This document shows positions 7,779-20,806 of a stretch of DNA of 64,000 nucleotides, one piece after another. Below the pieces are notes generated by a model. It had not been told where the DNA came from. It saw only the letters and a list, made by a program, of their open reading frames with translations, and did not search any database. The position numbers and the translations under genes were made by a program. Numbering within the stretch: the first letter of the stretch is position 1; every line of letters begins with the position of its first letter. The DNA lies in the NCBI RefSeq assembly GCF_036507355.1, contig NZ_AP027877.1; one strand, written 5' to 3'. The stretch is from Escherichia coli. Its GTDB lineage: Bacteria; Pseudomonadota; Gammaproteobacteria; Enterobacterales; Enterobacteriaceae.

Positions 7779-9302
7779 ATGAACGACAAAATCAGTCAGG
7801 ACACGATCAACAAAGCCCTGTGGGCCGCGTGTGATACGTTCCGTGGCACCATCAGTGCTGATACCTATAAAGACTTTATCCTTACCATGCTGTTCCTCAA
7901 GTACATTTCAGATGTCTGGCAGGATCACTACGACGAATATAAAGTGCAATATGGCGATGCGCCGGAACTGATTGAAGCGATGATGGCGAACGAGCGCTTC
8001 GTGTTGCCGAAAAGCGCCAGTTTCTATGCGTTGTACGAGCGACGTCATGAGCCGGGCAACGGTGAGCGTATCGATCAGGCGCTGCATGCGATTGAAGAAG
8101 CCAACGGCACCAAACTGAAAGATGCCGGGAAAAGTGTCTTCCAGGATATTTCGTTTAACACTGACCGTCTGGGCGAAGAAAAACAGAAGAACACCATCCT
8201 GCGTCAGTTGCTGGAAGACTTTGCCGGTGAAGATCTTAACCTGAAGCCAAGCCGTGTCGGTACGCTGGACGTTATCGGTAATGCTTACGAATATCTGATC
8301 AAAAACTTTGCTGCCAGCGGTGGGCAGAAAGCCGGGGAATTCTATACCCCGCCGGAAGTTTCGGACCTGATTGCTGAACTGCTCGATCCGCAACCGGGTG
8401 ATACCATCTGCGATCCGGCCTGTGGTTCGGGTTCATTGTTGATGAAGTGTGGGCGTAAAATTGTCTCCGGGCATGATAGTCGTAACTATGCATTGTTCGG
8501 TCAGGAAGCGATCGGTTCTACGTGGTCGCTGGCGAAAATGAATATGTTCCTGCACGGGGAAGACAACCATAAAATCGAGTGGGGCGATACCATTCGTAAC
8601 CCGAAGCTGCTCGATAAAAATGGCGACCTGATGCTGTTTGATATCGTGACCGCTAACCCACCGTTCAGCCTCGATAAGTGGGGCCATGACGAGGCCGAGA
8701 ACGATAAGTTTGGCCGTTTTCGTCGCGGTGTACCGCCGAAGACTAAAGGAGATTACGCTTTTATCTCGCATATGATCGAAACCCTGAAACCGGGAACTGG
8801 CCGTATGGGCGTAGTTGTGCCACACGGTGTGCTTTTCCGTGGCTCCAGCGAAGGTAAAATTCGCCAGAAACTGATCGACGAAAATTTGCTGGATGCGGTA
8901 ATTGGTCTGCCGGAAAAACTGTTCTACGGTACGGGGATTCCGGCTGCGATTCTGATTTTTAAAAAGCAGAAAGTTGATGACAAGGTGCTGTTTATCGATG
9001 CCAGCCGTGAATTCAAGGCAGGTAAAAACCAGAACCAGCTTAGCGAAGAAAACATTAAGAAAATCGTCAAGACCTACCGTGATGGCGATAACGTCGAGAA
9101 ATACGCCTATCTTGCCAGCCTGAAGGAAATTCAGGACAACGACTATAATCTCAATATCCCGCGCTATGTCGATACCTTTGAAGAAGAGGATGAGATTGAC
9201 CTGCTGGCGGTGCGAGCAGAACGCGAGCAACTGAAGGCGGAATTGGCGAAGCTGGAAACGGAGATGGCTGGATATTTGAAGGAGTTGGGTTATGGCTCGT
9301 GA
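7779..9302 (+). CDS. hsdM: Type I restriction-modification system, DNA methyltransferase subunit M
   Basis: 507 aa; N6-adenine MTase motifs including DIVTANPPF and the AdoMet-binding region DPACGSGSLL. Confidence 0.95.
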   Translation: MNDKISQDTINKALWAACDTFRGTISADTYKDFILTMLFLKYISDVWQDHYDEYKVQYGDAPELIEAMMANERFVLPKSASFYALYERRHEPGNGERIDQALHAIEEANGTKLKDAGKSVFQDISFNTDRLGEEKQKNTILRQLLEDFAGEDLNLKPSRVGTLDVIGNAYEYLIKNFAASGGQKAGEFYTPPEVSDLIAELLDPQPGDTICDPACGSGSLLMKCGRKIVSGHDSRNYALFGQEAIGSTWSLAKMNMFLHGEDNHKIEWGDTIRNPKLLDKNGDLMLFDIVTANPPFSLDKWGHDEAENDKFGRFRRGVPPKTKGDYAFISHMIETLKPGTGRMGVVVPHGVLFRGSSEGKIRQKLIDENLLDAVIGLPEKLFYGTGIPAAILIFKKQKVDDKVLFIDASREFKAGKNQNQLSEENIKKIVKTYRDGDNVEKYAYLASLKEIQDNDYNLNIPRYVDTFEEEDEIDLLAVRAEREQLKAELAKLETEMAGYLKELGYGS

Positions 9303-10566
9303 TTCGCTTTACCCAGTGAGCGTTAAAGCTGGAAAACCGATCCTTGGAATGCTACCTACAGGATGGCAAAAGTTATCATTAGAAAAGTGCTTAAATATAG
9401 AGGCAAGAAAGGCATATATACAAGATAATCAAGAGTATGACTTAGTTACAGTAAAGCGCTCCAGAGGTGGCGTAATAAGACGTGAGCATCTTAAAGGAAA
9501 AGATATCTCCGTAAAAAGTCAATTCTATATTAAAGAAGGCGACTTTCTCATATCAAAACGACAAATTGTGCACGGTGCTTGCGGTCTTGTACCTAAAGAA
9601 CTTTCTGGCTCAATTGTATCGAATGAATATTGTGTGCTTACAGGGAAGTCCGGTTTTTATCTTCCTTATATGGAATTTCTATCGGAGTCTCTATATTTCC
9701 AGCAAACCTGCTTCCACTCTAGCATTGGTGTGCACATAGAGAAAATGATTTTTAAGTTAGATAGTTGGTTTAAGTGGCCATTTAATATCCCCCCACTGTC
9801 TGAACAAAAGAGAATCGTTAAAATCCTGTCAACCTGGGATAAGGCGATTTCGGTGACGGAAAAGCTTCTCACCAACAGTCAGCAGCAGAAAAAAGCCCTG
9901 ATGCAGCAATTGCTTACCGGGAAAAAACGCTTGCTGGATGAGAGGGGGGTGAGGTTTAGTGGGGAGTGGAAGAGAGTAAAACTGGGTGCGATAGCCGATA
10001 TGAACAGTGGAGGTACTCCGAAATCAACGGTTGAAGAGTATTATGGCGGGAATATCCCATGGGTATCTATTTCTGATATGACATCTAATGGAAAGTGGAT
10101 TGCTACAACTGAAAAATATCTGACTGAATTAGGATTGAACAGTTCATCCGCAAGAATATATCCAAAAAACTCGGTTCTTTATGCTATGTATGCTTCTATA
10201 GGTGAATGCAGCATTGCTGCTGTAAATTTAACATCTTCGCAGGCAATCTTGGGTATTAGACCAAAAGATTGTTTAAATTATGAGTTTTTATATTTCTATC
10301 TTACATCATTAAAAGAAAAAATAAAACTGCAAGGCCAGCAAGGTACACAGTCCAACCTAAACGCCGGAATGGTTAAAGAGTTTGAACTAGACTTACCCAG
10401 TATAAGAGAACAACAAAAAATCGCCGCCGTCCTGTCCGTCGCCGATGCCGAAATCTCCACGCTGGAGAAAAAACTCGCCTGCCTGAGAGATGAGAAAAAA
10501 GCCCTGATGCAACAGCTACTGACTGGCAAACGTCGTGTTAAGGTCGATGAGGCGGTTGCCGAATGA
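9292..10566 (+). CDS. hsdS: Type I restriction-modification system, specificity subunit S
   Basis: 424 aa; two AT-rich target-recognition domains separated by the repeated conserved segment KKALMQQLLTGKKRL / KKALMQQLLTGKRRV; start overlaps the hsdM stop by 11 nt. Confidence 0.95.
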   Translation: MARDSLYPVSVKAGKPILGMLPTGWQKLSLEKCLNIEARKAYIQDNQEYDLVTVKRSRGGVIRREHLKGKDISVKSQFYIKEGDFLISKRQIVHGACGLVPKELSGSIVSNEYCVLTGKSGFYLPYMEFLSESLYFQQTCFHSSIGVHIEKMIFKLDSWFKWPFNIPPLSEQKRIVKILSTWDKAISVTEKLLTNSQQQKKALMQQLLTGKKRLLDERGVRFSGEWKRVKLGAIADMNSGGTPKSTVEEYYGGNIPWVSISDMTSNGKWIATTEKYLTELGLNSSSARIYPKNSVLYAMYASIGECSIAAVNLTSSQAILGIRPKDCLNYEFLYFYLTSLKEKIKLQGQQGTQSNLNAGMVKEFELDLPSIREQQKIAAVLSVADAEISTLEKKLACLRDEKKALMQQLLTGKRRVKVDEAVAE

Positions 10567-11246
10567 AACTGACGAAAAGCGGTCCACTGACTGACCGGGA
10601 AATCGACTGGCTGGAAGAAATATTAATGAAGTATGGAATGGATGATTCTGTACTCTGTTTCTCTGAGCTGGATGGATTGCTGACGGCGATTTTATCAGGT
10701 CCAAATATGGTTTCACCCAATATCTGGCTGAGTGCTATTTGGGGAGGAGGCGATTATCATCCGAAATGGTCATCTGAGAGAGAGATGGAGCGTTTTGTCA
10801 GTCTGTGTTTTCAGCATATGAACGATATCGCTGGTTGCCTTTATGACGCCCCTGAACTGTTTGAGCCGATTTTCAATGAGCGTGAGGTAAAGGGGGAAAA
10901 ATATACCATTGTGGAAGAGTGGTGTTTTGGTTATATGAAAGGAAAGTCACTGGATGACTGGTCTGGTCTTCCCGGTGAGTTACGGCCTTCTCTGGAAGTG
11001 ATCGCTCTTCATGGCGTGGAGAAGAATTTTCCTGTACTTGAGAAAATGACCAGAGAGCAGTTTGAGAAAAGTATTTCCCTTATTAAGCCTGCTGCACTGG
11101 CACTTTATCAGTACTGGTTGTCAGTGAGAATGTCAGAGGCATCATCCCGGCCTGTTCCAGTGAAGGGGGCAGAAAACATGCCCGGGCGAAATGACCCGTG
11201 TCCGTGTGGCAGCGGTAAAAAATTTAAGAAGTGCTGTCTGCATTGA
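10563..11246 (+). CDS. YecA/UPF0149-family protein with C-terminal SEC-C metal-binding motif, embedded between hsdS and hsdR
   Basis: 227 aa; C-terminal [20 protein letters not shown]; colinear with chromosomal YecA (20141-20806) along its whole length; ATGA overlap with the hsdS stop. Confidence 0.85.
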   Translation: MKLTKSGPLTDREIDWLEEILMKYGMDDSVLCFSELDGLLTAILSGPNMVSPNIWLSAIWGGGDYHPKWSSEREMERFVSLCFQHMNDIAGCLYDAPELFEPIFNEREVKGEKYTIVEEWCFGYMKGKSLDDWSGLPGELRPSLEVIALHGVEKNFPVLEKMTREQFEKSISLIKPAALALYQYWLSVRMSEASSRPVPVKGAENMPGRNDPCPCGSGKKFKKCCLH

Positions 11247-11295: not shown

Positions 11296-14200
11296 ATGAT
11301 GAACCAGACGTACACGCCTAAATTCCAGGAAGAATACAGCGCCAAAATTCCGGCACTGACGTTACTGACCAGCCTCGGCTGGACGTTTTTATCTCCGAAA
11401 CAGATTATGGATTACCGGGGCTATAAACAGGATGAGGTGGTGCTGCGTCCGGTTCTGCGTGAAGAGCTGTCGAAGCGTTCCTTTATGGCGGGTGGCAAAA
11501 CCTGCCAGTTATCGGAAAAAGCACTGGATAACCTGATATCACAGGTCTGTTCTCCGGCGCTGAATGAAGGGCTGCTCAAAGCCAATGAACGGATGTATAA
11601 CCATCTGCTCTACGGTATCGCCGTCACGGAGTTTGTCGATGGCAAGAAGGTGAACCCCACCATTGCGCTGATCGACTGGGAACATCCGGAAAGTAACCAG
11701 TTCCATTTTACCGAAGAATTTACGGTATTGCGGTCAGGCGGTGTCGAAACCCGCAGGCCGGATATTGTGTGTTTTGTGAATGGTATCCCGCTGGCCGTCA
11801 TTGAAGCGAAAAGCCCGGCGGGTCACGGCAAGAAAGGGCCAACCATTGACGAAGGGATATCCCAGAGTATCCGCAATCAGCTCAACGACGAAATCCCGCA
11901 GCTGTTTGCTTACAGCCAGATATTACTGTCGATTAACGGGCATGACGGGCGCTACGGTACCTGTCATACACCAATGAAATTCTGGGCGGCATGGCGCGAA
12001 GAAGATATTACTTACGCGCAGATGTATGCGCTGCGCAACCATAAGTTATCGACTGAACAAATTCATGCGTTGTTTGATGATCGTCCTTCAGTCGATCTCA
12101 AATGGTATCAACAGTTAATCGATGGGGGGGAACTGGCAGTCAGCGGGCAGGATAAGCTGCTCATCAGTCTGCTTTCACCGGAACGTCTGCTGGAGATGAC
12201 CCGCTTCTTCACCCTGTTTGATAAAAAAACCGGAAAAATTGTTGCCCGCTATCAGCAGGTGTTCGGTATTAAAAGACTGCTGGAACGCATCAGTACCCGC
12301 AGACCAGACGGGGGCAGGGAAGGTGGGGTGATCTGGCATACCACGGGGTCAGGTAAATCTTACACCATGGTATTCCTCAGCAAGGCGCTGATTCTTCATG
12401 ACAGCCTGAAGCAGTGTCGTATTGTGGTGGTGACGGACCGCGTGGACCTTGAAGGGCAGCTCAGCGGCACTTTTGTCTCTGGTGGCGAACTGGCAGGGAA
12501 GGATGATAAGGCCAAAGCGATGGCAACCTCAGGTCAGAAGCTGGCACAGCAGATTGGCTCTGGTAAAGAACGTATAATCTTTACCCTTATCCAGAAATTT
12601 AACTCAGCGACAAAATTGCCTGAATGCGTCAACACCAGCCCCGACATCATCGTTCTGATTGATGAAGGACACCGTAGCCAGGGTGGTGAGAACCATGTGC
12701 GAATGAAACTGGCACTGCCGAACGCCGCCTTTGTGGCATTTACTGGTACGCCATTGCTAAAAGAAGATAAGACCACCAATAAATTCGGGCCGATTGTCCA
12801 CGCTTATACCATGCAGCGAGCGGTAGAAGATAAAGCCGTTACACCTTTGCTGTATGAAGAACGTATTCCCGACCTTGAGGTTAACGATCGGGCAATAGAT
12901 GCCTGGTTTGATCGTATTACCGATGGGTTAAGCGAAGCGCAAAAAGCCGACCTTAAGCGTAAATATGCCCGTAAAGGTGAGGTTTATAGTGCAGATGATC
13001 GCATCCGTCTGATCGCACTCGATATCGCCACGCACTTCTCGAAGAATATTGATGAGGGGCTGAAAGGCCAGCTTGCCTGCGACAGCAAGATTTCCGCCAT
13101 CAAATATAAAAAGTATCTTGATGAAGCCGGGTTGTTTGAGTCAGCAGTAGTTATCAGCCCGCCGGATACCCGGGAAGGGAATACCGAAGTGGATGAAAGC
13201 AAACTGCCGGAAGTGACGAAATGGTGGAAGGATAATGTCGGCACGCAGGATGAGTCTGTGTATACCCGTAATATCATCAGTCGTTTCGATACCGATGAGA
13301 AGCTCAAATTGCTGATAGTCGTTGATAAACTGCTCACCGGGTTTGATGAGCCGAAGAATACCGTGCTGTATATCGACAAGCCGCTTAAGTCCCACAACCT
13401 TATCCAGGCGATTGCGCGGGTGAACCGACTGCATCCACTAAAAAAGTTCGGTCTGCTGATTGATTATCGCGGTATTCTGGCTGAGCTGGACACGACTATC
13501 GGCAAATATCAGGACCTCGCCTCCCGAACTCAGGGCGGATACGATATCAAAGATATTGACGGGCTGTACAGCGCCATGAGCTCTGAATACAAGCGCCTGC
13601 CGCATCTGTATAACCAGCTGTGGGCCATATTTGCCGGTGTTAAAAACAAAAATGATACTGAGCAGTTACGTGCGGTACTGGTGCCTAAAATGGAAGAACG
13701 TGACGGAGAGATGGTCGATATCCATCAGAAAACCCGTGATGATTTCTTCGAGGCGTTAACGGCCTTTGCCGGATGCCTGAAAGTGGCACTGCAGTCCGCT
13801 ACCTTCTTCACCGACAAGAGCTTTACGGAACAAGACCGAAATCTCTATAAAGAAACCGTAAAACAGATGTCCAGCCTGCGCCAGTGGGCGATGCAGGTAA
13901 GTGGAGAGCAGGTCAATTATGACGACTACGCTGAGCAGGTGAAAAAACTGCTGGATAAGCATGTCACCGGCGTTGAGGTTCGTGAACCGGATGGCGTGTA
14001 TGAAGTCGGTAAAATGGGCAAGAGCGAAAAGCCCGAAGAGTGGGACAACAATAAAACCCGCAATGAAACCGACATCATTAAAACCCGCGTGACGAAGATG
14101 ATTGAGCAGGAATTGCGTGATGACCCGTATGCTCAGGAGGCATTTTCAAAACTCCTGCGTATGGCTATCGAAGAGGCTGAAAAACTGTTTGACCATCCGC

Positions 14201-14583
14201 TGAAACAGTACCTTTTGTTCCGTGAATTTGAAGAACAGGTTGAAGCCCGTAAGCTCAGCGATATCCCGGATGCACTGGCGGTAAACAAGCATGCTCAGGC
14301 GTATTACGGTGTATTTAAAAAAGAGCTACCTGAGGTTTTTGCGGTAAACGACGTTCAGGTGCAGGATAAGTGGACCAAGCTGGCTTTTGAAGTGGACAAC
14401 ATTATCGTCAAAGCGGTGGCAGAAAACTCCCTGAACCCCCAGGACATTGAGAAAGTCGTTAAGACAAGTCTGCTACCACTGCTGTTTACGGCCTGCCGGG
14501 AAATTGGTGCCGGAATGAATCAGGTTAACCGTATTGTGGAAACCATCATCCAGATACTGCGCGTTGGTTTGATGAAATCATGA
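11296..14583 (+). CDS. hsdR: Type I restriction enzyme, restriction (helicase-nuclease) subunit R
   Basis: 1095 aa; Walker A TGSGKSYTM and DEAH-box LIDEGHRSQ; typical HsdR N-terminus. Confidence 0.95.
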   Translation: MMNQTYTPKFQEEYSAKIPALTLLTSLGWTFLSPKQIMDYRGYKQDEVVLRPVLREELSKRSFMAGGKTCQLSEKALDNLISQVCSPALNEGLLKANERMYNHLLYGIAVTEFVDGKKVNPTIALIDWEHPESNQFHFTEEFTVLRSGGVETRRPDIVCFVNGIPLAVIEAKSPAGHGKKGPTIDEGISQSIRNQLNDEIPQLFAYSQILLSINGHDGRYGTCHTPMKFWAAWREEDITYAQMYALRNHKLSTEQIHALFDDRPSVDLKWYQQLIDGGELAVSGQDKLLISLLSPERLLEMTRFFTLFDKKTGKIVARYQQVFGIKRLLERISTRRPDGGREGGVIWHTTGSGKSYTMVFLSKALILHDSLKQCRIVVVTDRVDLEGQLSGTFVSGGELAGKDDKAKAMATSGQKLAQQIGSGKERIIFTLIQKFNSATKLPECVNTSPDIIVLIDEGHRSQGGENHVRMKLALPNAAFVAFTGTPLLKEDKTTNKFGPIVHAYTMQRAVEDKAVTPLLYEERIPDLEVNDRAIDAWFDRITDGLSEAQKADLKRKYARKGEVYSADDRIRLIALDIATHFSKNIDEGLKGQLACDSKISAIKYKKYLDEAGLFESAVVISPPDTREGNTEVDESKLPEVTKWWKDNVGTQDESVYTRNIISRFDTDEKLKLLIVVDKLLTGFDEPKNTVLYIDKPLKSHNLIQAIARVNRLHPLKKFGLLIDYRGILAELDTTIGKYQDLASRTQGGYDIKDIDGLYSAMSSEYKRLPHLYNQLWAIFAGVKNKNDTEQLRAVLVPKMEERDGEMVDIHQKTRDDFFEALTAFAGCLKVALQSATFFTDKSFTEQDRNLYKETVKQMSSLRQWAMQVSGEQVNYDDYAEQVKKLLDKHVTGVEVREPDGVYEVGKMGKSEKPEEWDNNKTRNETDIIKTRVTKMIEQELRDDPYAQEAFSKLLRMAIEEAEKLFDHPLKQYLLFREFEEQVEARKLSDIPDALAVNKHAQAYYGVFKKELPEVFAVNDVQVQDKWTKLAFEVDNIIVKAVAENSLNPQDIEKVVKTSLLPLLFTACREIGAGMNQVNRIVETIIQILRVGLMKS

Positions 14584-15335
14584 GTGAAAAAGAATCGCCA
14601 TCAATGAAAGCGTTACGCATTGTCTATGGTGATGATGTCATCACCGTACAGTGTGTTCCGCGTCAGGTCGTAAAGGGCAGGGTGCTCATCAAGGTTTATC
14701 CGGACTGCCGGGTTGTGGCCTCTGTACCGCCTGAAACACCGGAGCACGAGGTATTGTCTGCGCTGAAAAAAAGAGGGCGCTGGATATACCAGCAACTGCG
14801 TGATTTCAGGGAGCAACAGACACACATTGTTCCGCGTCAGTATGTCAGCGGAGAAAGCCATTATTATCTCGGTAAGCAATATCAGTTGAAAGTGACAGAA
14901 GACGCTACTGTGCCGCAACGAGTGAAAATGTTGCGTGGGCGTCTGGAAGTGACTGTCAGACACAAATCGGCAGAAAAGATTAAAGCCTTGCTGGCTGAAT
15001 GGTATCGGGAACGTGCCAGAGATGTTTTTCAGCGCAGGCTTGATTTACTGATTCCGCAGACCCTTTGGGTCAGTGAGCGTCCTCCGATACGTCTGCGGGC
15101 GATGCAAACGCAATGGGGCAACTGTTCAGCAAAAGGCTGTCTGACCCTGAATCCATGGCTGGTTAAGGCATCCTCAGAATGTATCGATTATGTTTTGCTA
15201 CATGAGTTATGCCATGTGGCTGAGCACAACCACAGCGAGGAGTTTTACCGTCTGATGGGGCAGGTTATGCCTGGGTGGGAAAAGGTCAAGAAACGACTGG
15301 ATGGGATGGCTGGGATGTTGTTGGCTGATATGTAA
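14580..15335 (+). CDS. DUF45 / YgjP-like (M48-type) zinc metallopeptidase, translationally coupled to hsdR
   Basis: 251 aa; HEXXH motif HELCHVAEHNH near the C-terminus; ATGA overlap with the hsdR stop. Confidence 0.8.
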   Translation: MSEKESPSMKALRIVYGDDVITVQCVPRQVVKGRVLIKVYPDCRVVASVPPETPEHEVLSALKKRGRWIYQQLRDFREQQTHIVPRQYVSGESHYYLGKQYQLKVTEDATVPQRVKMLRGRLEVTVRHKSAEKIKALLAEWYRERARDVFQRRLDLLIPQTLWVSERPPIRLRAMQTQWGNCSAKGCLTLNPWLVKASSECIDYVLLHELCHVAEHNHSEEFYRLMGQVMPGWEKVKKRLDGMAGMLLADM

Positions 15336-15393
15336 CTTATCAATATGAGTTCTTAAGGGTTTGGTCAGTCTCGTTAATGTAGGGAGTATAATA

Positions 15394-17232
15394 ATGAGTA
15401 AGTTAGATAATAAAATTGAAGCACGCCATCGTAATTTGTTTGATGTTCTAAATGCGCAAAAATATACCGTTGATTACTTTCAGCGCGAGTATAGCTGGGG
15501 TGAGAAACATATTGAAGAGTTGGTTACAGACTTAACATCTGCGTTTCTCAATGAATACACCGTCGGTGATTCTCGGGAGCAGGGTGAAAACTACAATAAT
15601 TATTACTTAGGACCATTTGTTGTGAGTAGTAAAGATGGGAAACGGAGTATTATTGATGGTCAGCAACGACTGACTTCATTAACTTTATTTCTAATTTACC
15701 TCCATAACCTTCAGAAAGAACTTAAATATGAAGAGAAAATAGAATCAATGATTTTCTCCGAGTTACGTGGCAGCAAATCATTCAATATAGTAGTTGAAGA
15801 CAGAATACCTTGCATGGAAGCATTGTTTAATTTTGGTAGCTATAGTTTAGTTGATGGGGATGATGAGTCAACCCATAACATGGTGGAGAGATATCAGAAT
15901 ATCACAGATGCTTTTCCTGATGAATTAAAAGGTCAGGCTTTTCCTTTTTTTATCGACTGGCTTAAGTATAACGTTATTATGGTTGAGATAGTTGCCTATT
16001 CAGATGAAAACGCATATACCATCTTTGAGACTATGAATGACCGAGGATTAAATCTTACTCCGTCCGAAATGCTTAAAGGTTTTTTACTTTCACGCTTTCA
16101 TCAGGGAGATAAACGCCAAAAGGTAAATGAACTCTGGAAAAAAGCGATGATGGATTTAAAAAACTATGATAAAGATGAAGACCAACGTTTTTTCCAGTCA
16201 TGGTTGCGTGCTCAATATGCTGATACAATACGCCCGGGTAAAGCTGGTTCAAAAAATGAAGACTTTGAAAAAATAGGTACGCGTTTTCATAGCTGGGTTA
16301 GAGATAATCTTCAGGCGGTGGGATTGGACCCAGATAATGGTGAGACATTCGAACGATTTATACAAAAAAACTTTTTGTTTTATTTGAATGCCTATACACA
16401 AATACTGAATGCTGAGAGAGCATTAACGCACCAACTGGAATATGTATTTTATATCCACCATTGGGGTATTGCACCTACTTTAAGTTTCCCTTTGATGTTG
16501 GCTCCATTAAATGTAGGTGACAGTCCTGATGCTGTGATAGCCAAAATAAACCTGGTGGCGCGCTATATTGAAACATTTGTTGTTCGTCGTTCTGTTAATT
16601 TCCGAAAATTCTCTGCCAGTTCTATTCGTTACACAATGTACAGTCTTGTTAAAGAAATTCGTGGTAAAAGTATTGAAGAATTAAAAGATTTGTTATCTAA
16701 GAAGTTATCCGAAATGCCAGATACTTTTGCAGGAATGGAAGAGTTTCGTCTCCATGGTCAAAACTATCGTTTTGTGAAGTTTTTGCTTTCTCGTATAACT
16801 GCGTGGGTTGAGCAGCAAGCCGGAATGAGTACAACCTTCATTACATATTATCAGCCAGAACACGGTAAGCCATTTGAAGTCGAGCATATTTGGGCCGATA
16901 AATATGAACGTTACTCTGATGAGTTTGAACAAGAGCACGAATTTAACAATTACAGAAATCGCTTAGGTGATTTGGTTTTATTACCTAGAGGCTCAAACCA
17001 GTCATATGGTGATTTGTGTTACGATCAAAAGCAACCTCATTACATCAAAGAGAATCTCCTGGCTAAATCGTTATGCCCATTGGCATATATGAATAACCCT
17101 AATTTCAATCAGTTGAGAAATGTATTCGGATTGCCTTTCAAACCACATGATTCATTTAAAAAACAAGATGTCGATGAACGACAGTCTTTGTATAAAATAA
17201 TTTGTGAGAATATTTGGGACCATAATTTATAG
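15394..17232 (+). CDS. DUF262 (ParB-like, DGQQR) / DUF1524 (His-Me finger) protein, GmrSD-like type IV restriction candidate
   Basis: Motif IIDGQQRLTSL in the N-terminal half; C-terminal EVEHIWADKY...NRLGDLVLLPRGSNQS. I place the start at ATG 15394 with SD agggag 7 nt upstream; the track uses TTG at 15361. Confidence 0.75.
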   Translation: MSKLDNKIEARHRNLFDVLNAQKYTVDYFQREYSWGEKHIEELVTDLTSAFLNEYTVGDSREQGENYNNYYLGPFVVSSKDGKRSIIDGQQRLTSLTLFLIYLHNLQKELKYEEKIESMIFSELRGSKSFNIVVEDRIPCMEALFNFGSYSLVDGDDESTHNMVERYQNITDAFPDELKGQAFPFFIDWLKYNVIMVEIVAYSDENAYTIFETMNDRGLNLTPSEMLKGFLLSRFHQGDKRQKVNELWKKAMMDLKNYDKDEDQRFFQSWLRAQYADTIRPGKAGSKNEDFEKIGTRFHSWVRDNLQAVGLDPDNGETFERFIQKNFLFYLNAYTQILNAERALTHQLEYVFYIHHWGIAPTLSFPLMLAPLNVGDSPDAVIAKINLVARYIETFVVRRSVNFRKFSASSIRYTMYSLVKEIRGKSIEELKDLLSKKLSEMPDTFAGMEEFRLHGQNYRFVKFLLSRITAWVEQQAGMSTTFITYYQPEHGKPFEVEHIWADKYERYSDEFEQEHEFNNYRNRLGDLVLLPRGSNQSYGDLCYDQKQPHYIKENLLAKSLCPLAYMNNPNFNQLRNVFGLPFKPHDSFKKQDVDERQSLYKIICENIWDHNL

Positions 17233-17290
17233 CAAAGTTAGGGTGTTAATTAATCTGTAATGGCATCATGATTTTTAAAAGGAGGTTGAA

Positions 17291-18418
17291 TTGCGTTCTG
17301 AAACGTTTTTTGTCAAATTTATTGAACAACTGAAAGGTATTTCGGTTGAGGATGATGTTGAATTCAATTTTTTTGAATTGGGTGGTTCCGGATATCTCGA
17401 AAATCCAACTACGGATTTGATGGCTTTGTTTATGGGAGCCCAGAAAATGGTGCCGCCATGGTTGCTCAAAGCATTGCTATGTTGCCTGGATGATTCCCTC
17501 GATGTTGATGAAATTGATTTCACTTCTCTGGAGCTAATGAGAGAGGCCCGAACAGAAGATGGGAAATATATTGATATTCTTATCAGACATGATGAATTCA
17601 TTATAGGTATTGAGCATAAAGTTCTGGCTGATACATATAATCCTTTTCCCAGCTATGTAAGTCTCATTGATAGTTACGGCGGCAACAATCAAAAACTATT
17701 TCGCTGTATATTAAAGCCTGACGGTAACAGCGCTAAAGGCGTAGACGGTTGGCAACTGATCAATTATTCACTGCTGCTGGAAACCGCCATTCGACGTCTG
17801 GGGTTGGAGATGATGAATCAAGAGTTCAGCAAGTGGACTGTTTTTTATCAGGAGTTTTTAAGTCATCTTAAAAAATTGAGTGAGGTTAGTATGGATAAGG
17901 TATCTGATAAAAATGTGGAGTTTGTCACTGAAAATTTCTCAGCTTTGATAAAATCGGTTCAACTGCTGGAAATGTACCAAAATGCTATCACCGAGGAAGC
18001 TAAATCGGTTGTCTCAGAGGTATTGCCTGATATTCATATTGCAACAGGTATTAATAACTGGAAGGGTTACTATAAAGCAATTCATCTGATGCCGGGATGC
18101 TGGGGGCAAGGTAAAACAGGAATTACGTTAGTTTATCGCCCTTCAGAGGATGGACGAGATGAAGCTGAGTTCTACGTATATGGATGGATACATTCAGATG
18201 ATTACCCTGAAGTTAATGCACTAAAAGAAGAAATAAGAGTTGCTTTAAGTGCTGGAGATTTCATTCCAACAGCTAGCCCTGAGGACTATGAAGTATCAAT
18301 TACTGGGAAGGGGAAAGTGCTTGAACTGAGTTTTTGGGGGAATACGAGAAGCAAAAAAGATGCACTGGTTCTTCTTAAGGATATGACTAAGTGGATGGAC
18401 TCAAAAATAAGAACATAA
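17291..18418 (+). CDS. Hypothetical protein, 375 aa, with PD-(D/E)XK-like motif
   Basis: TTG start preceded by strong SD aaaaggagg; YIDILIRHDEFIIGIEHKV resembles a D...E-x-K nuclease core; remainder has no recognisable domain. Confidence 0.5.
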   Translation: MRSETFFVKFIEQLKGISVEDDVEFNFFELGGSGYLENPTTDLMALFMGAQKMVPPWLLKALLCCLDDSLDVDEIDFTSLELMREARTEDGKYIDILIRHDEFIIGIEHKVLADTYNPFPSYVSLIDSYGGNNQKLFRCILKPDGNSAKGVDGWQLINYSLLLETAIRRLGLEMMNQEFSKWTVFYQEFLSHLKKLSEVSMDKVSDKNVEFVTENFSALIKSVQLLEMYQNAITEEAKSVVSEVLPDIHIATGINNWKGYYKAIHLMPGCWGQGKTGITLVYRPSEDGRDEAEFYVYGWIHSDDYPEVNALKEEIRVALSAGDFIPTASPEDYEVSITGKGKVLELSFWGNTRSKKDALVLLKDMTKWMDSKIRT

Positions 18419-18522
18419 AGTAATATGACTGAGTGATGACGATCTTTTTTAAATTGTGGATTATTAGGCTGGTAATTGAAGCGCCGAATAGACAGATATT
18501 GGAATAAAAGGAGAATATTCAA

Positions 18523-19704
18523 ATGATTTATCAGTGTGATACTTGCAGTAGAACGACTTTTGAGGTTAATTGTCCCTGGTGTAGTGGAGTTTCGCCTGTA
18601 AAAACGTCTGCATGGGGTTCAGCATCATCGACCGCACAAGCAATAGGCATACAACGTATGACACCATTGAATCCATCGTTTTATCCCGAATTTCAGTATC
18701 GTTCAAAGGGTGTTCTAAAAGATCTATTTGGGAAAAAGAAAGAGCAAACTCAGCTTAATCAATTGCTTGAAAATGTTCTCAAAAAATACTCCAGTTTAAA
18801 AGATCCATATTTTACTAACTTCATTTACACTTCCAGATTCTCACATAATAATAAATCGGAAGCAGATTACTCAACAGATAATGGTACATACTCCGAATTA
18901 CAACTTTTCCGTGAGGTGTTGGTCAGAAAAGGGTTCAATGAGCTTGAGCAGTTACCTGAGCTATTAGATAAATTACTCCTTACCACGTCATTTAACGCTC
19001 TTTATTATGGTTTCGCTAAGGAAGTTAAACGGCATATTAAATCCACACTTACTGAATCCTTGAAGTCATGGATTGAGGAAGCGGGTACCACTTTTAGGGC
19101 AGATCTTTCATTGTTTCTATTCTATATATGGAGCAATAAAATAGAGTTCTCATCAGTAGAGTTCAATGAAAAAGCGGAGGCTACGCCTGGTGTTCCTTTA
19201 GTTTCATTTGATGAAGTTAAAAAATACTTAGCTGTGTGCGAACATATTTATTTTGATATTCTGGTTGATAGATTAGCTACACGGCTCGAACATTTTAACC
19301 CTAACAAATTCGTCACCATGTATTTAGTTGATGCAATGGACGGTTTCCAGTTTGAAGATTTCCTTGTGGAAGTATTCCAGACTATGGGCTATGACGTCAA
19401 AGAAACCAAGAGAACGCAAGATCAGGGGGCAGATCTCTTCGTCACTCGATTTGGTAAGGATATGGTTATTCAGGCGAAAAATTATTCTGGTTCTGTAGGT
19501 AACTCGGCGGTGCAGCAGGTGATCTCTGCTAAAACATTCTATGGTTGTGATGAGGCGATGGTTGTGACTAATTCCTACTTCACACGCTCTGCCAAAGAAT
19601 TAGCTGAATCAGCCTTGGTACGTTTGATCGACAGGGATGAACTGCAAAAGTATCTGGATGATTACAATCAGAAGATAATTGAAGATTTCCAGTCAAACTC
19701 GTAA
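18523..19704 (+). CDS. Restriction endonuclease-like protein: N-terminal Cys4 zinc-ribbon plus C-terminal Mrr catalytic domain
   Basis: N-terminus CDTCSRTTFEVNCPWC; C-terminus GADLFVT...VIQAKNYSGSV...VVTNSYFTRSAKELA...LIDRDEL, colinear with the E. coli Mrr catalytic region as I recall it (D...Q-x-K). Confidence 0.75.
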   Translation: MIYQCDTCSRTTFEVNCPWCSGVSPVKTSAWGSASSTAQAIGIQRMTPLNPSFYPEFQYRSKGVLKDLFGKKKEQTQLNQLLENVLKKYSSLKDPYFTNFIYTSRFSHNNKSEADYSTDNGTYSELQLFREVLVRKGFNELEQLPELLDKLLLTTSFNALYYGFAKEVKRHIKSTLTESLKSWIEEAGTTFRADLSLFLFYIWSNKIEFSSVEFNEKAEATPGVPLVSFDEVKKYLAVCEHIYFDILVDRLATRLEHFNPNKFVTMYLVDAMDGFQFEDFLVEVFQTMGYDVKETKRTQDQGADLFVTRFGKDMVIQAKNYSGSVGNSAVQQVISAKTFYGCDEAMVVTNSYFTRSAKELAESALVRLIDRDELQKYLDDYNQKIIEDFQSNS

Positions 19705-19889
19705 CTTTGCAGTCATATAGATATAGCAAAGGACAGGTAGGCCTCCGTGAGAGGGGGACTTACCTGTGCAGATTCTGTGCTCAAAGTTATCCAAGTCTAT
19801 CTATTTACTGCCAATTACAGTAAAATGAGTAAGCAATTACAGCAAAGTTTCGCAATGCACTGCTATGTAACTCATTGATCCTGCGTAGA

Positions 19890-19945
19890 ATTTAAAATCC
19901 CTCGGCGTTCGCGCTGTGCGGGTTCAAGTCCCGCTCCGGGTACCA
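19890..19945 (+). repeat. 3'-terminal 56 nt of tRNA-Leu (leuZ-type; anticodon loop to CCA), the att-site remnant at the right boundary of the element
   Basis: ATTTAAAATCCCTCGGCGTTCGCGCTGTGCGGGTTCAAGTCCCGCTCCGGGTACCA matches the 3' part of tRNA-Leu(UAA) as I recall it; the 5' acceptor and D-arm are absent upstream, so this is not a complete tRNA gene. Confidence 0.8.
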
Positions 19946-19988
19946 TGGGAAAGATAAGAATAAAATCAAAGCAATAAGCAGTGTCGTG

Positions 19989-20013
19989 AAACCACCTTCG
20001 GGTGGTTTTTTTG
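19989..20013 (+). terminator. Rho-independent terminator (aaccacc ttcg ggtggtt + T-run) downstream of the tRNA remnant
   Basis: Perfect 7-bp stem, 4-nt loop, run of 7 T. Confidence 0.65.
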
Positions 20014-20140
20014 TGCCTGCAACTTGTCGTTACACCCTCCTTAATTTTTAATCACCGGCAAAGCCACTCAAAAAGTATCTCTGATACGGACCGGCATGTA
20101 AGATAGGTGTTGGCGAGTTGAGATCCACAAGGAAAAGCGT

Positions 20141-20806
20141 ATGAAAACGGGACCGTTAAACGAAAGTGAGTTGGAATGGCTGGACGATATTCTGACCAAA
20201 TACAACACTGACCACGCCATCCTTGATGTGGCGGAGCTGGACGGTTTATTGACGGCGGTGTTGAGTTCTCCGCAAGAGATTGAACCGGCACAGTGGCTGG
20301 TTGCCGTGTGGGGTGGGGCTGACTATGTGCCGCGCTGGGCGTCAGAGAAAGAGATGACGCGCTTTATGAACCTGGCTTTTCAACATATGGCCGATACCGC
20401 AGAGCGTCTGAACGAATTCCCGGAGCAGTTTGAGCCGTTATTCGGCTTGCGAGAAGTTGATGGCAGCGAGCTGACGATTGTTGAGGAGTGGTGCTTTGGC
20501 TATATGCGGGGCGTGGCACTTTCTGACTGGTCAACATTGCCCGATTCGTTAAAACCAGCGCTGGAGGCGATAGCGCTGCACGGTACTGAGGAAAACTTCG
20601 AGCGGGTAGAGAAGATGTCGCCAGAAGCGTTTGAAGAGAGCGTAGATGCCATTCGACTGGCGGCGCTTGATCTACATGCGTACTGGATGGCGCATCCGCA
20701 GGAAAAAGCTGTTCAGCAACCGATCATAGCAGAAGAGAAACCGGGGCGTAACGATCCTTGCCCGTGCGGTAGTGGTAAGAAATTTAAGCAGTGCTGCCTG
20801 CATTAA
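20141..20806 (+). CDS. yecA: UPF0149-family protein YecA with SEC-C motif (chromosomal copy)
   Basis: 221 aa; ends [20 protein letters not shown]; position between tRNA-Leu and tyrP as in K-12. Confidence 0.9.

Follow-up and report, generated by a model that had tools for sequence, protein, structure and literature searches.

A PDDEXK_4 family protein (PADLOC PDC-S26) in the cargo of an Escherichia coli pipolin: a candidate stand-alone nuclease in defence against mobile DNA

The gene considered here occupies positions 17291-18418, on the + strand, of a stretch of 64,000 nucleotides (nts) of Escherichia coli DNA (assembly GCF_036507355.1, contig NZ_AP027877.1), the whole of which is called the window in what follows, and an integrated pipolin carries it at its cargo end. 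Its product of 375 amino acids (aa) is, in all the comparisons of sequence and predicted fold examined, a member of the Pfam family PDDEXK_4 (PF14281) and of the PADLOC family PDC-S26; it conserves the catalytic residues of the PD-(D/E)XK nucleases, its distribution is accessory and mobile, and no partner gene is conserved beside it. The reading that we favour, with a probability of about 0.55, is that this protein would be a stand-alone PDDEXK_4 nuclease acting in defence against phages or other mobile DNA. An earlier note, made from the letters of the window alone, had pointed to the gene as that of an orphan protein with a TTG start and a PD-(D/E)XK-like core, placed between two nucleases of type IV appearance.

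Family, active site and predicted fold

The features of the gene and of its product are the following:

17280..17285, + strand: Shine-Dalgarno sequence AGGAGG, 5 nts before the TTG, read directly from the sequence
17291..18418, + strand: PDDEXK_4-family / PADLOC PDC-S26 gene, 375 aa plus stop (open reading frame, RefSeq coding sequence, PADLOC match, substitution rates)
17363..17788, + strand: N-terminal PD-(D/E)XK nuclease domain, residues 25-166, including the conserved NFF..GGxGYLENPT(S/T)D, residues 26-42
17573..17620, + strand: predicted catalytic motif, D95 to E108-H109-K110 (D...ExK), from conservation and the predicted strands 93-99 and 103-109
17765..18025, + strand: helical linker, residues ~159-245 (helices 159-175, 181-197 and 206-244), with the conserved K181 and W182, from AlphaFold2 secondary structure and conservation
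18026..18415, + strand: C-terminal family-specific alpha/beta domain, residues ~246-375 (beta4-alpha-beta2-alpha)

Pfam PDDEXK_4 matches residues 25-166 (i-Evalue 9.5e-13, model positions 1-160 of 183), and the protein is matched by eight PADLOC-DB models, all of them PDC-S26, the best being PDLC04981 (E=1e-50, residues 8-300, profile positions 8-295 of 358). There was no match to Shedu or to any other named, validated family of PADLOC v2.0.0; NCBIfam and PHROGs gave no match to the 375-residue protein, and among the sequences of the PDB neither the single protein nor a 36-sequence profile found a match.

The segment YIDILIRHDEFIIGIEHKV (residues 93-111) contains D95, E108, H109 and K110. Together with N117 and Y122, the residues D95, E108 and K110 are the same in every one (100%) of the 165 family members aligned, and these three are invariant also in the 36-sequence alignment; E37, E85, W154 and W182 are conserved in 99% of the 165, K181 in 98% and R84 in 96%, within a wider set of residues (F28, G34, E37, N38, P39, D42, R84, E85, N117, Y122, W154, K181, W182, W257 and W271) found in 87-100% of members. 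At the level of these alignments, D95...E108-H-K110 is a genuine PD-(D/E)XK active-site signature. The core proposed in the earlier note is in this way borne out, by the Pfam match, by the invariance of D95, E108 and K110 and by their place on the modelled strands; its further remark, that only D...EHK was recognisable and that the other ~270 residues were without motif, was too narrow, as PDDEXK_4 spans residues 25-166 and many further residues are conserved.

An AlphaFold2 model of the whole protein, built from the 36-sequence alignment (mean predicted local distance difference test score, pLDDT, 84; predicted template modelling score, pTM, 0.50), gives in the N-terminal half a helix (39-50), three strands (81-87, 93-99 and 103-109), a second helix (119-128) and a further strand (135-142), in a beta-beta-beta-alpha-beta core whose second strand carries D95 and whose third carries E108-x-K110, which is the canonical PD-(D/E)XK arrangement. 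The alpha-beta-beta-beta-alpha-beta core of the restriction-endonuclease-like fold is present in the model, which resembles NucS, BspD6I, McrC and FokI, so that the structure prediction and fold search for which the earlier note had called did find a nuclease fold, and such a fold is, as a prediction, well supported. The N-terminal domain (~25-166) would then be a metal-dependent PD-(D/E)XK phosphodiesterase, with an active site formed by D95, E108 and K110 and probably helped by E37 and/or E85.

The reading frame opens at a TTG, the earliest start available after the upstream stop. This start is credible because the RefSeq coding sequence, in a ~99% near-identical region of another E. coli genome, has identical coordinates; because a start at M44, the first in-frame ATG, would drop residues N26-T40, which are invariant among homologues; because all five copies compared from other genera (out of six such loci) retain this TTG; and because a Kluyvera paralogue of 77% identity has an ATG at the equivalent codon. 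The 375-residue frame with its TTG and strong Shine-Dalgarno sequence stands, consequently, as it had been described. With ratios of nonsynonymous to synonymous substitution rates (dN/dS) of 0.07-0.29 against its orthologues in other genera, the gene is, as far as its substitutions tell, real and under purifying selection.

An accessory gene and its probable role in defence

The term orphan does not suit this protein, which is catalogued in PADLOC as PDC-S26 and is found, in exactly the same form, on 682 public contigs, where it is named "PD-(D/E)XK nuclease family protein". The gene is present in 214 of 5426 complete E. coli genomes (3.9%), always on the chromosome. Beyond the species, a word-indexed search gave 46 clusters of homologues in Enterobacterales, Aeromonas and Burkholderia, all of which carry PF14281, and an exhaustive HMMER search gave 817 representatives at 50% identity with E <=0.001 (293 of them with E <=1e-10); nearly all the complete-length members fall within 340-420 aa, and the 150 of them among the matches listed are all of about this size (~340-420 aa) and share the same layout. 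Matches lie on 54 plasmids, whilst in 50,697 phage records tblastn found nothing that matches the gene. A housekeeping role, which the earlier note had named as one outcome that would contradict it, is rejected, since only 3.9% of E. coli genomes have the gene, which is accessory.

A pipolin of E. coli is inserted here at tRNA-Leu, beside yecA, and its cargo end holds the gene, around which the features are these:

1-~2411, - strand: gene of an 866-aa protein, ~800 codons of it in the window, running off the window start (DNA match to strain HKUOPY1)
7779-9302, + strand: hsdM
9292-10566, + strand: hsdS
10563-11246, + strand: YecA-family paralogue
11296-14583, + strand: hsdR
14580-15335, + strand: M48/YgjP-like peptidase
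15394..17232, + strand: DUF262/DUF1524 GmrSD-like protein (HEC-06-like), upstream neighbour (PADLOC HEC-06, E=4.7e-41; Pfam GmrSD_N and GmrSD_C on an orthologue; RefSeq)
18523..19704, + strand: zinc-ribbon and Mrr_cat restriction-endonuclease-like protein, downstream neighbour (Pfam Mrr_cat, E=9.8e-30; PADLOC PDC-S02 and ZorD C-terminal matches)
19890..20022, no strand assigned: right attachment repeat of 133 bp, a second copy of the 3' portion of tRNA-Leu (leuZ) with its flank (96% identity to HKUOPY1 L027 19748-19878)

In E. coli, pipolins occupy a tRNA-Leu site between pgsA and yecA, and their core consists of tyrosine recombinases, a DUF2787 gene and the primer-independent PolB, piPolB (PMC11551731). 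We assign the locus to a pipolin because its insertion site and core genes agree with that description. In strain HKUOPY1, whose region is near-identical, the element begins at the glyW-cysT-leuZ tRNA cluster after pgsA, and the order is tRNA-Leu (annotated at L027 19717-19803), an integrase, DUF2787, the 866-aa protein, a second integrase, hsdMS, hsdR and then, further on, the PDDEXK_4 gene, the Mrr-like gene and yecA, both integrases being tyrosine recombinases. The 866-aa protein is probably piPolB, mainly by its context, the Pfam match to DNA_pol_B_2 being weak (E=0.01). In the window, the chromosomal yecA, tyrP and ftnA come after the Mrr-like gene, and the attachment repeat that lies between this gene and yecA may be read as the right end of the pipolin; ARAGORN found no complete tRNA anywhere in the window.

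Two other observations concern this cargo. The YecA-family (UPF0149/SEC-C) paralogue, embedded between hsdS and hsdR, is 57% identical to the chromosomal yecA (20141-20806), and it holds the same place between hsdS and hsdR in copies from other genera. Within hsdS, the region ~9294-10407 is sharply divergent from HKUOPY1, where no more than a 168-bp piece matches, at 90% identity, between flanks that are 96-99% identical, which suggests that the specificity subunit has been swapped.

A defence role is inferred for the protein because it belongs to PDC-S26; because, as pipolin cargo, it stands beside three systems of restriction type, namely a type I restriction-modification (R-M) system, the HEC-06-like GmrSD protein and the Mrr-like protein; because several homologues lie in islands rich in defence genes; because the family is found on 54 plasmids and in none of the phage records; and because a patchy spread is combined with purifying selection. 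The label PDC stands for phage defence candidate. Payne et al. (bioRxiv 10.1101/2024.01.29.577857; PADLOC-DB v2.0.0) arrived at 145 such candidates, of one or several genes, through their embedding in the loci of BREX, DISARM and type I R-M systems ("guilt-by-embedding"), and entered them in PADLOC; PDC-S26 is, moreover, among the most frequent defence systems in the pipolins of Enterobacterales (PMC11551731). The nuclease domain would in that case cut nucleic acid, most likely the incoming DNA of phages or plasmids.

The surroundings of the homologues were compared in 18 loci, from contigs of one genome per species, and in further contigs that encode ten specific homologues. A homologue in Yersinia lies between Gabija-like genes (OLD-type ATPase and UvrD) and LlaJI/AAA_5 genes, one in Dickeya adjoins a transposase and a 920-aa SIR2_2 protein, another shares its island with OLD-like, Mrr, AIPR and integrase genes, and another is near BrxL and UvrD genes; a homologue in Rahnella is near HNH and ClpP genes, and in Pectobacterium one genome has two copies, each beside paired tyrosine recombinases. 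In a PADLOC scan of 20 neighbour proteins of the divergent loci, a single weak match, of methyltransferase type, was all that appeared.

Some of these loci deserve separate mention. In Kluyvera there are two PDDEXK_4 paralogues, 77% identical (L037 5051-6178 and 8001-9128; L038 8001-9128), one copy being within the pipolin and the other on the chromosome, just past the attachment site; the chromosomal paralogue is also found alone beside pgsA in a contig without a pipolin. The two copies in Pectobacterium zantedeschiae (L039 7001-13060; L040 1137-7196) are identical to each other and stand for one homologue of 48% identity; after each come the two tyrosine recombinases and a 561-aa open reading frame (ORF), an arrangement which suggests a small duplicated mobile element. 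Genes of MetX-type acyltransferases flank distant homologues in Polaromonas (L015 8022-9976, metX-metW upstream) and in Vreelandella (L018 11517-12713, a MetX-like esterase downstream), and this is probably a coincidence.

Several points weigh against a role in defence, or against its present support. The association with defence islands is not universal, because several distant homologues (24-33% identity) are alone between housekeeping genes (metX-metW/chrA, ubiH, lipA, nrdJ), and PADLOC found no match among the neighbours in Kluyvera, Pectobacterium and Rahnella. Some lineages of E. coli have lost or split the gene: in 0H18 it is cleanly absent, and DUF262 is followed 45 nts on by an intact Mrr-like gene; in KFu023 (L035 2431-3337) a deletion of ~221 bp splits it into ORFs of 119 and 202 aa, again beside an intact Mrr-like gene, and at least 3 further strains match with the same 95% coverage as KFu023. 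In the model, residues 20-37, which form the most conserved N-terminal motif, have a pLDDT <50, so that the predicted geometry of the active site is tentative. As to the literature, our search found no published experiment on the PDC-S26 family, nor any report of its activity, mechanism or structure, and searches for "PDDEXK_4" or "PF14281" returned no papers; a later study left the PDCs out of its reference set "because they are unvalidated", and Payne et al. themselves call the PDC systems untested (bioRxiv 10.1101/2024.01.29.577857). Finally, PDC-S26, unlike the other defence systems frequent in pipolins, is not enriched among recently exchanged genes (PMC11551731).

The last of these points, like the single homologues between housekeeping genes, speaks also for a nuclease with no immune function, which would serve the mobile element or the host DNA in recombination, in repair or on the replication or excision intermediates of the pipolin. 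Many PD-(D/E)XK families are indeed enzymes of repair or recombination, and the chromosomal copy of Kluyvera lies at a pipolin attachment site. We nevertheless consider this explanation unlikely, given that most E. coli genomes, and some pipolins too, lack the gene, that across the divergent loci it has no conserved link to an integrase, to piPolB or to a repair gene, and that the same family appears in unrelated islands packed with defence genes. Its position argues in the same direction, as the gene is at the cargo end, away from the integrases, the DUF2787 gene and piPolB, which are at the tRNA-Leu end.

The linker and the C-terminal domain

Pfam PDDEXK_4 covers residues 25-166 only, and both the helical region and the C-terminal domain of ~130 residues are outside any Pfam model; a Pfam scan of the C-terminal region in 35 members gave nothing at E <=0.001. 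Modelled alone from a 35-sequence alignment, residues 198-375 reach a pLDDT of 93.9 and a pTM of 0.87, with a topology in which a long helix is followed by four strands and a helix, and these by two strands and a last helix. Foldseek against AFDB50 found significant matches of this domain (<=0.001) only within proteins of the same nuclease family. Beyond the family, when it was compared with CesT, SycN, Spa15, AmyR and DR_1245 (chaperone/YbjN-like fold), with YktB (DUF1054) and with the C-terminal "double wing" of MotA, it showed a distant topology of type III secretion chaperone or YbjN type, at sequence identities of 3-12%; the resemblance to MotA was weak. As modelled, the domain would resemble the chaperone and YbjN folds only distantly, in a likeness at the level of the fold. 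The C-terminal region is also less conserved (mean top-residue frequency 0.14-0.34 vs 0.48-0.69 in the catalytic segments). Its charge, mostly acidic to neutral in the family (median isoelectric point, pI, 5.5), is uninformative, and a DNA-binding role deduced from it is rejected.

Within a defence nuclease, the helical linker and the faster-evolving C-terminal domain (~246-375) could provide the choice of target, oligomerisation or the control of the nuclease. In one variant, PDC-S26 would be a new single-protein immune nuclease in which the chaperone/YbjN-like domain acts as the sensor, binding for example a phage protein or a nucleic acid of unusual structure, and so releases a restrained PD-(D/E)XK nuclease; to our knowledge, no validated defence system has been described in which such a sensor is joined to such an effector, and we hold the idea as a speculative proposal, rather improbable as it stands.

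A different use of the same domain would make the protein a modification-dependent restriction endonuclease of type IV kind, in which the C-terminal domain reads modified phage DNA, as would be the case in its two neighbours. What makes this distinctly unlikely is that the only matches of the protein are to PDC-S26 and PDDEXK_4, with no PADLOC mREase_IV match, which a neighbour does have, and no known domain for reading modified bases; that the best matches of the C-terminal domain are chaperone-type folds that bind proteins and not DNA readers, the likeness to MotA being a weak one; and that the acidic to neutral charge of these domains does not favour it. Formal membership among the type IV restriction enzymes is rejected, as neither a reader domain nor a model match was found in PADLOC, Pfam or NCBIfam.

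Neighbouring nucleases and known systems

Both genes that flank the PDDEXK_4 gene are of nuclease type, as had been noticed from the sequence: the upstream one matches HEC-06 (E=5e-41, rounded), a GmrSD-like family validated experimentally by Payne et al. (bioRxiv 10.1101/2024.01.29.577857), and the downstream one, which no other gene separates from the right-end tRNA-Leu repeat, joins a CxxC...CxxC N-terminus to Mrr_cat. For the upstream gene, the mechanical ORF starts at a TTG at 15361 and RefSeq places the start at an ATG 11 codons on (MSKLDNK..., 15394). As to the downstream gene, in other strains only 3' remnants of it are seen, truncated by insertion sequences, one of them adjoining an MZA system.

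The earlier note had left two options, an independent nuclease effector and a partner of the Mrr-like protein. The second would amount to a system of two or, with the GmrSD-like protein, possibly three genes, in which one product senses and the other cuts. The genes are co-directional, separated by short gaps of 58 and 104 nts with no terminator-like site between them; a scan of 15200-20200 for promoters and terminators found no more sites than in shuffled sequence and is neutral on co-transcription. Within E. coli the PDDEXK_4 and Mrr-like genes usually occur together (in 214 and 243 genomes, with DUF262 in 178), and these two genes are adjacent in copies of >=96% identity in six other genera, four of these copies being without the DUF262 gene, which is missing from the loci L004-L007 although the PDDEXK_4 gene is there. 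All these co-occurrences, however, are in copies of >=96% identity, always behind hsdR-M48, apparently as parts of one mobile element (the one such copy examined upstream is within a pipolin), which speaks for linkage by descent.

The co-occurrence analysis that the earlier note had proposed gave the same answer outside those copies. Around the homologues of <=77% identity there is, to a distance of 10 kb, no homologue of the Mrr-like, DUF262 or HsdR proteins, the Mrr-like gene being absent beside such homologues in >12 independent contexts, and an all-against-all comparison of the neighbours in 11 divergent loci found no recurrent family. The 77%-identical paralogue of Kluyvera stands alone beside pgsA and a tRNA site, and, in the reverse direction, the Mrr-like gene persists in 0H18 without the PDDEXK_4 gene and intact beside the split copies. 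Because the Mrr-like gene is limited to the >=96% copies, and because of the separations in 0H18 and Kluyvera, the pairing is linkage on one element and not a conserved two-gene system; an obligate pairing is rejected, and a shared system in any form is very unlikely. The option of an independent nuclease effector is the better fit, and that of a partner fails in that adjacency is confined to near-identical copies and is broken in 0H18. Judged on genomic evidence, the PDC-S26 gene appears to be a single gene without an obligate partner.

The gene, its annotation, its status as a defence candidate and the presence of the family in pipolins are already in public resources (RefSeq, PADLOC, PMC11551731). 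What is added here is a domain map, a set of invariant residues suited to mutation and the evidence that the gene stands alone. It makes a sensible target at the bench, being small, a single gene, native to E. coli, under purifying selection and provided with obvious active-site residues (D95, E108 and K110) and with a C-terminal domain that is modelled with confidence. If protection against phages proved true, one of the 145 PDC candidates would join the validated set, and the role of a chaperone-like domain on a nuclease would be revealed.

As for the known systems, the protein is a member of PDC-S26 with no difference from it, as a single gene without a conserved partner, and the gene comes immediately after a type I R-M operon, the type of context from which the PDC systems were derived. 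Shedu SduA, a stand-alone PD-(D/E)XK defence nuclease with an extra regulatory or sensor domain, would be of similar general design. The DefensePredictor study (10.1101/2025.01.08.631726) validated 13 systems of E. coli that have PD-(D/E)XK domains, with great structural diversity outside the core, and the protein described here is of like design to these, with a conserved catalytic core joined to a divergent extra domain and a place on accessory islands.

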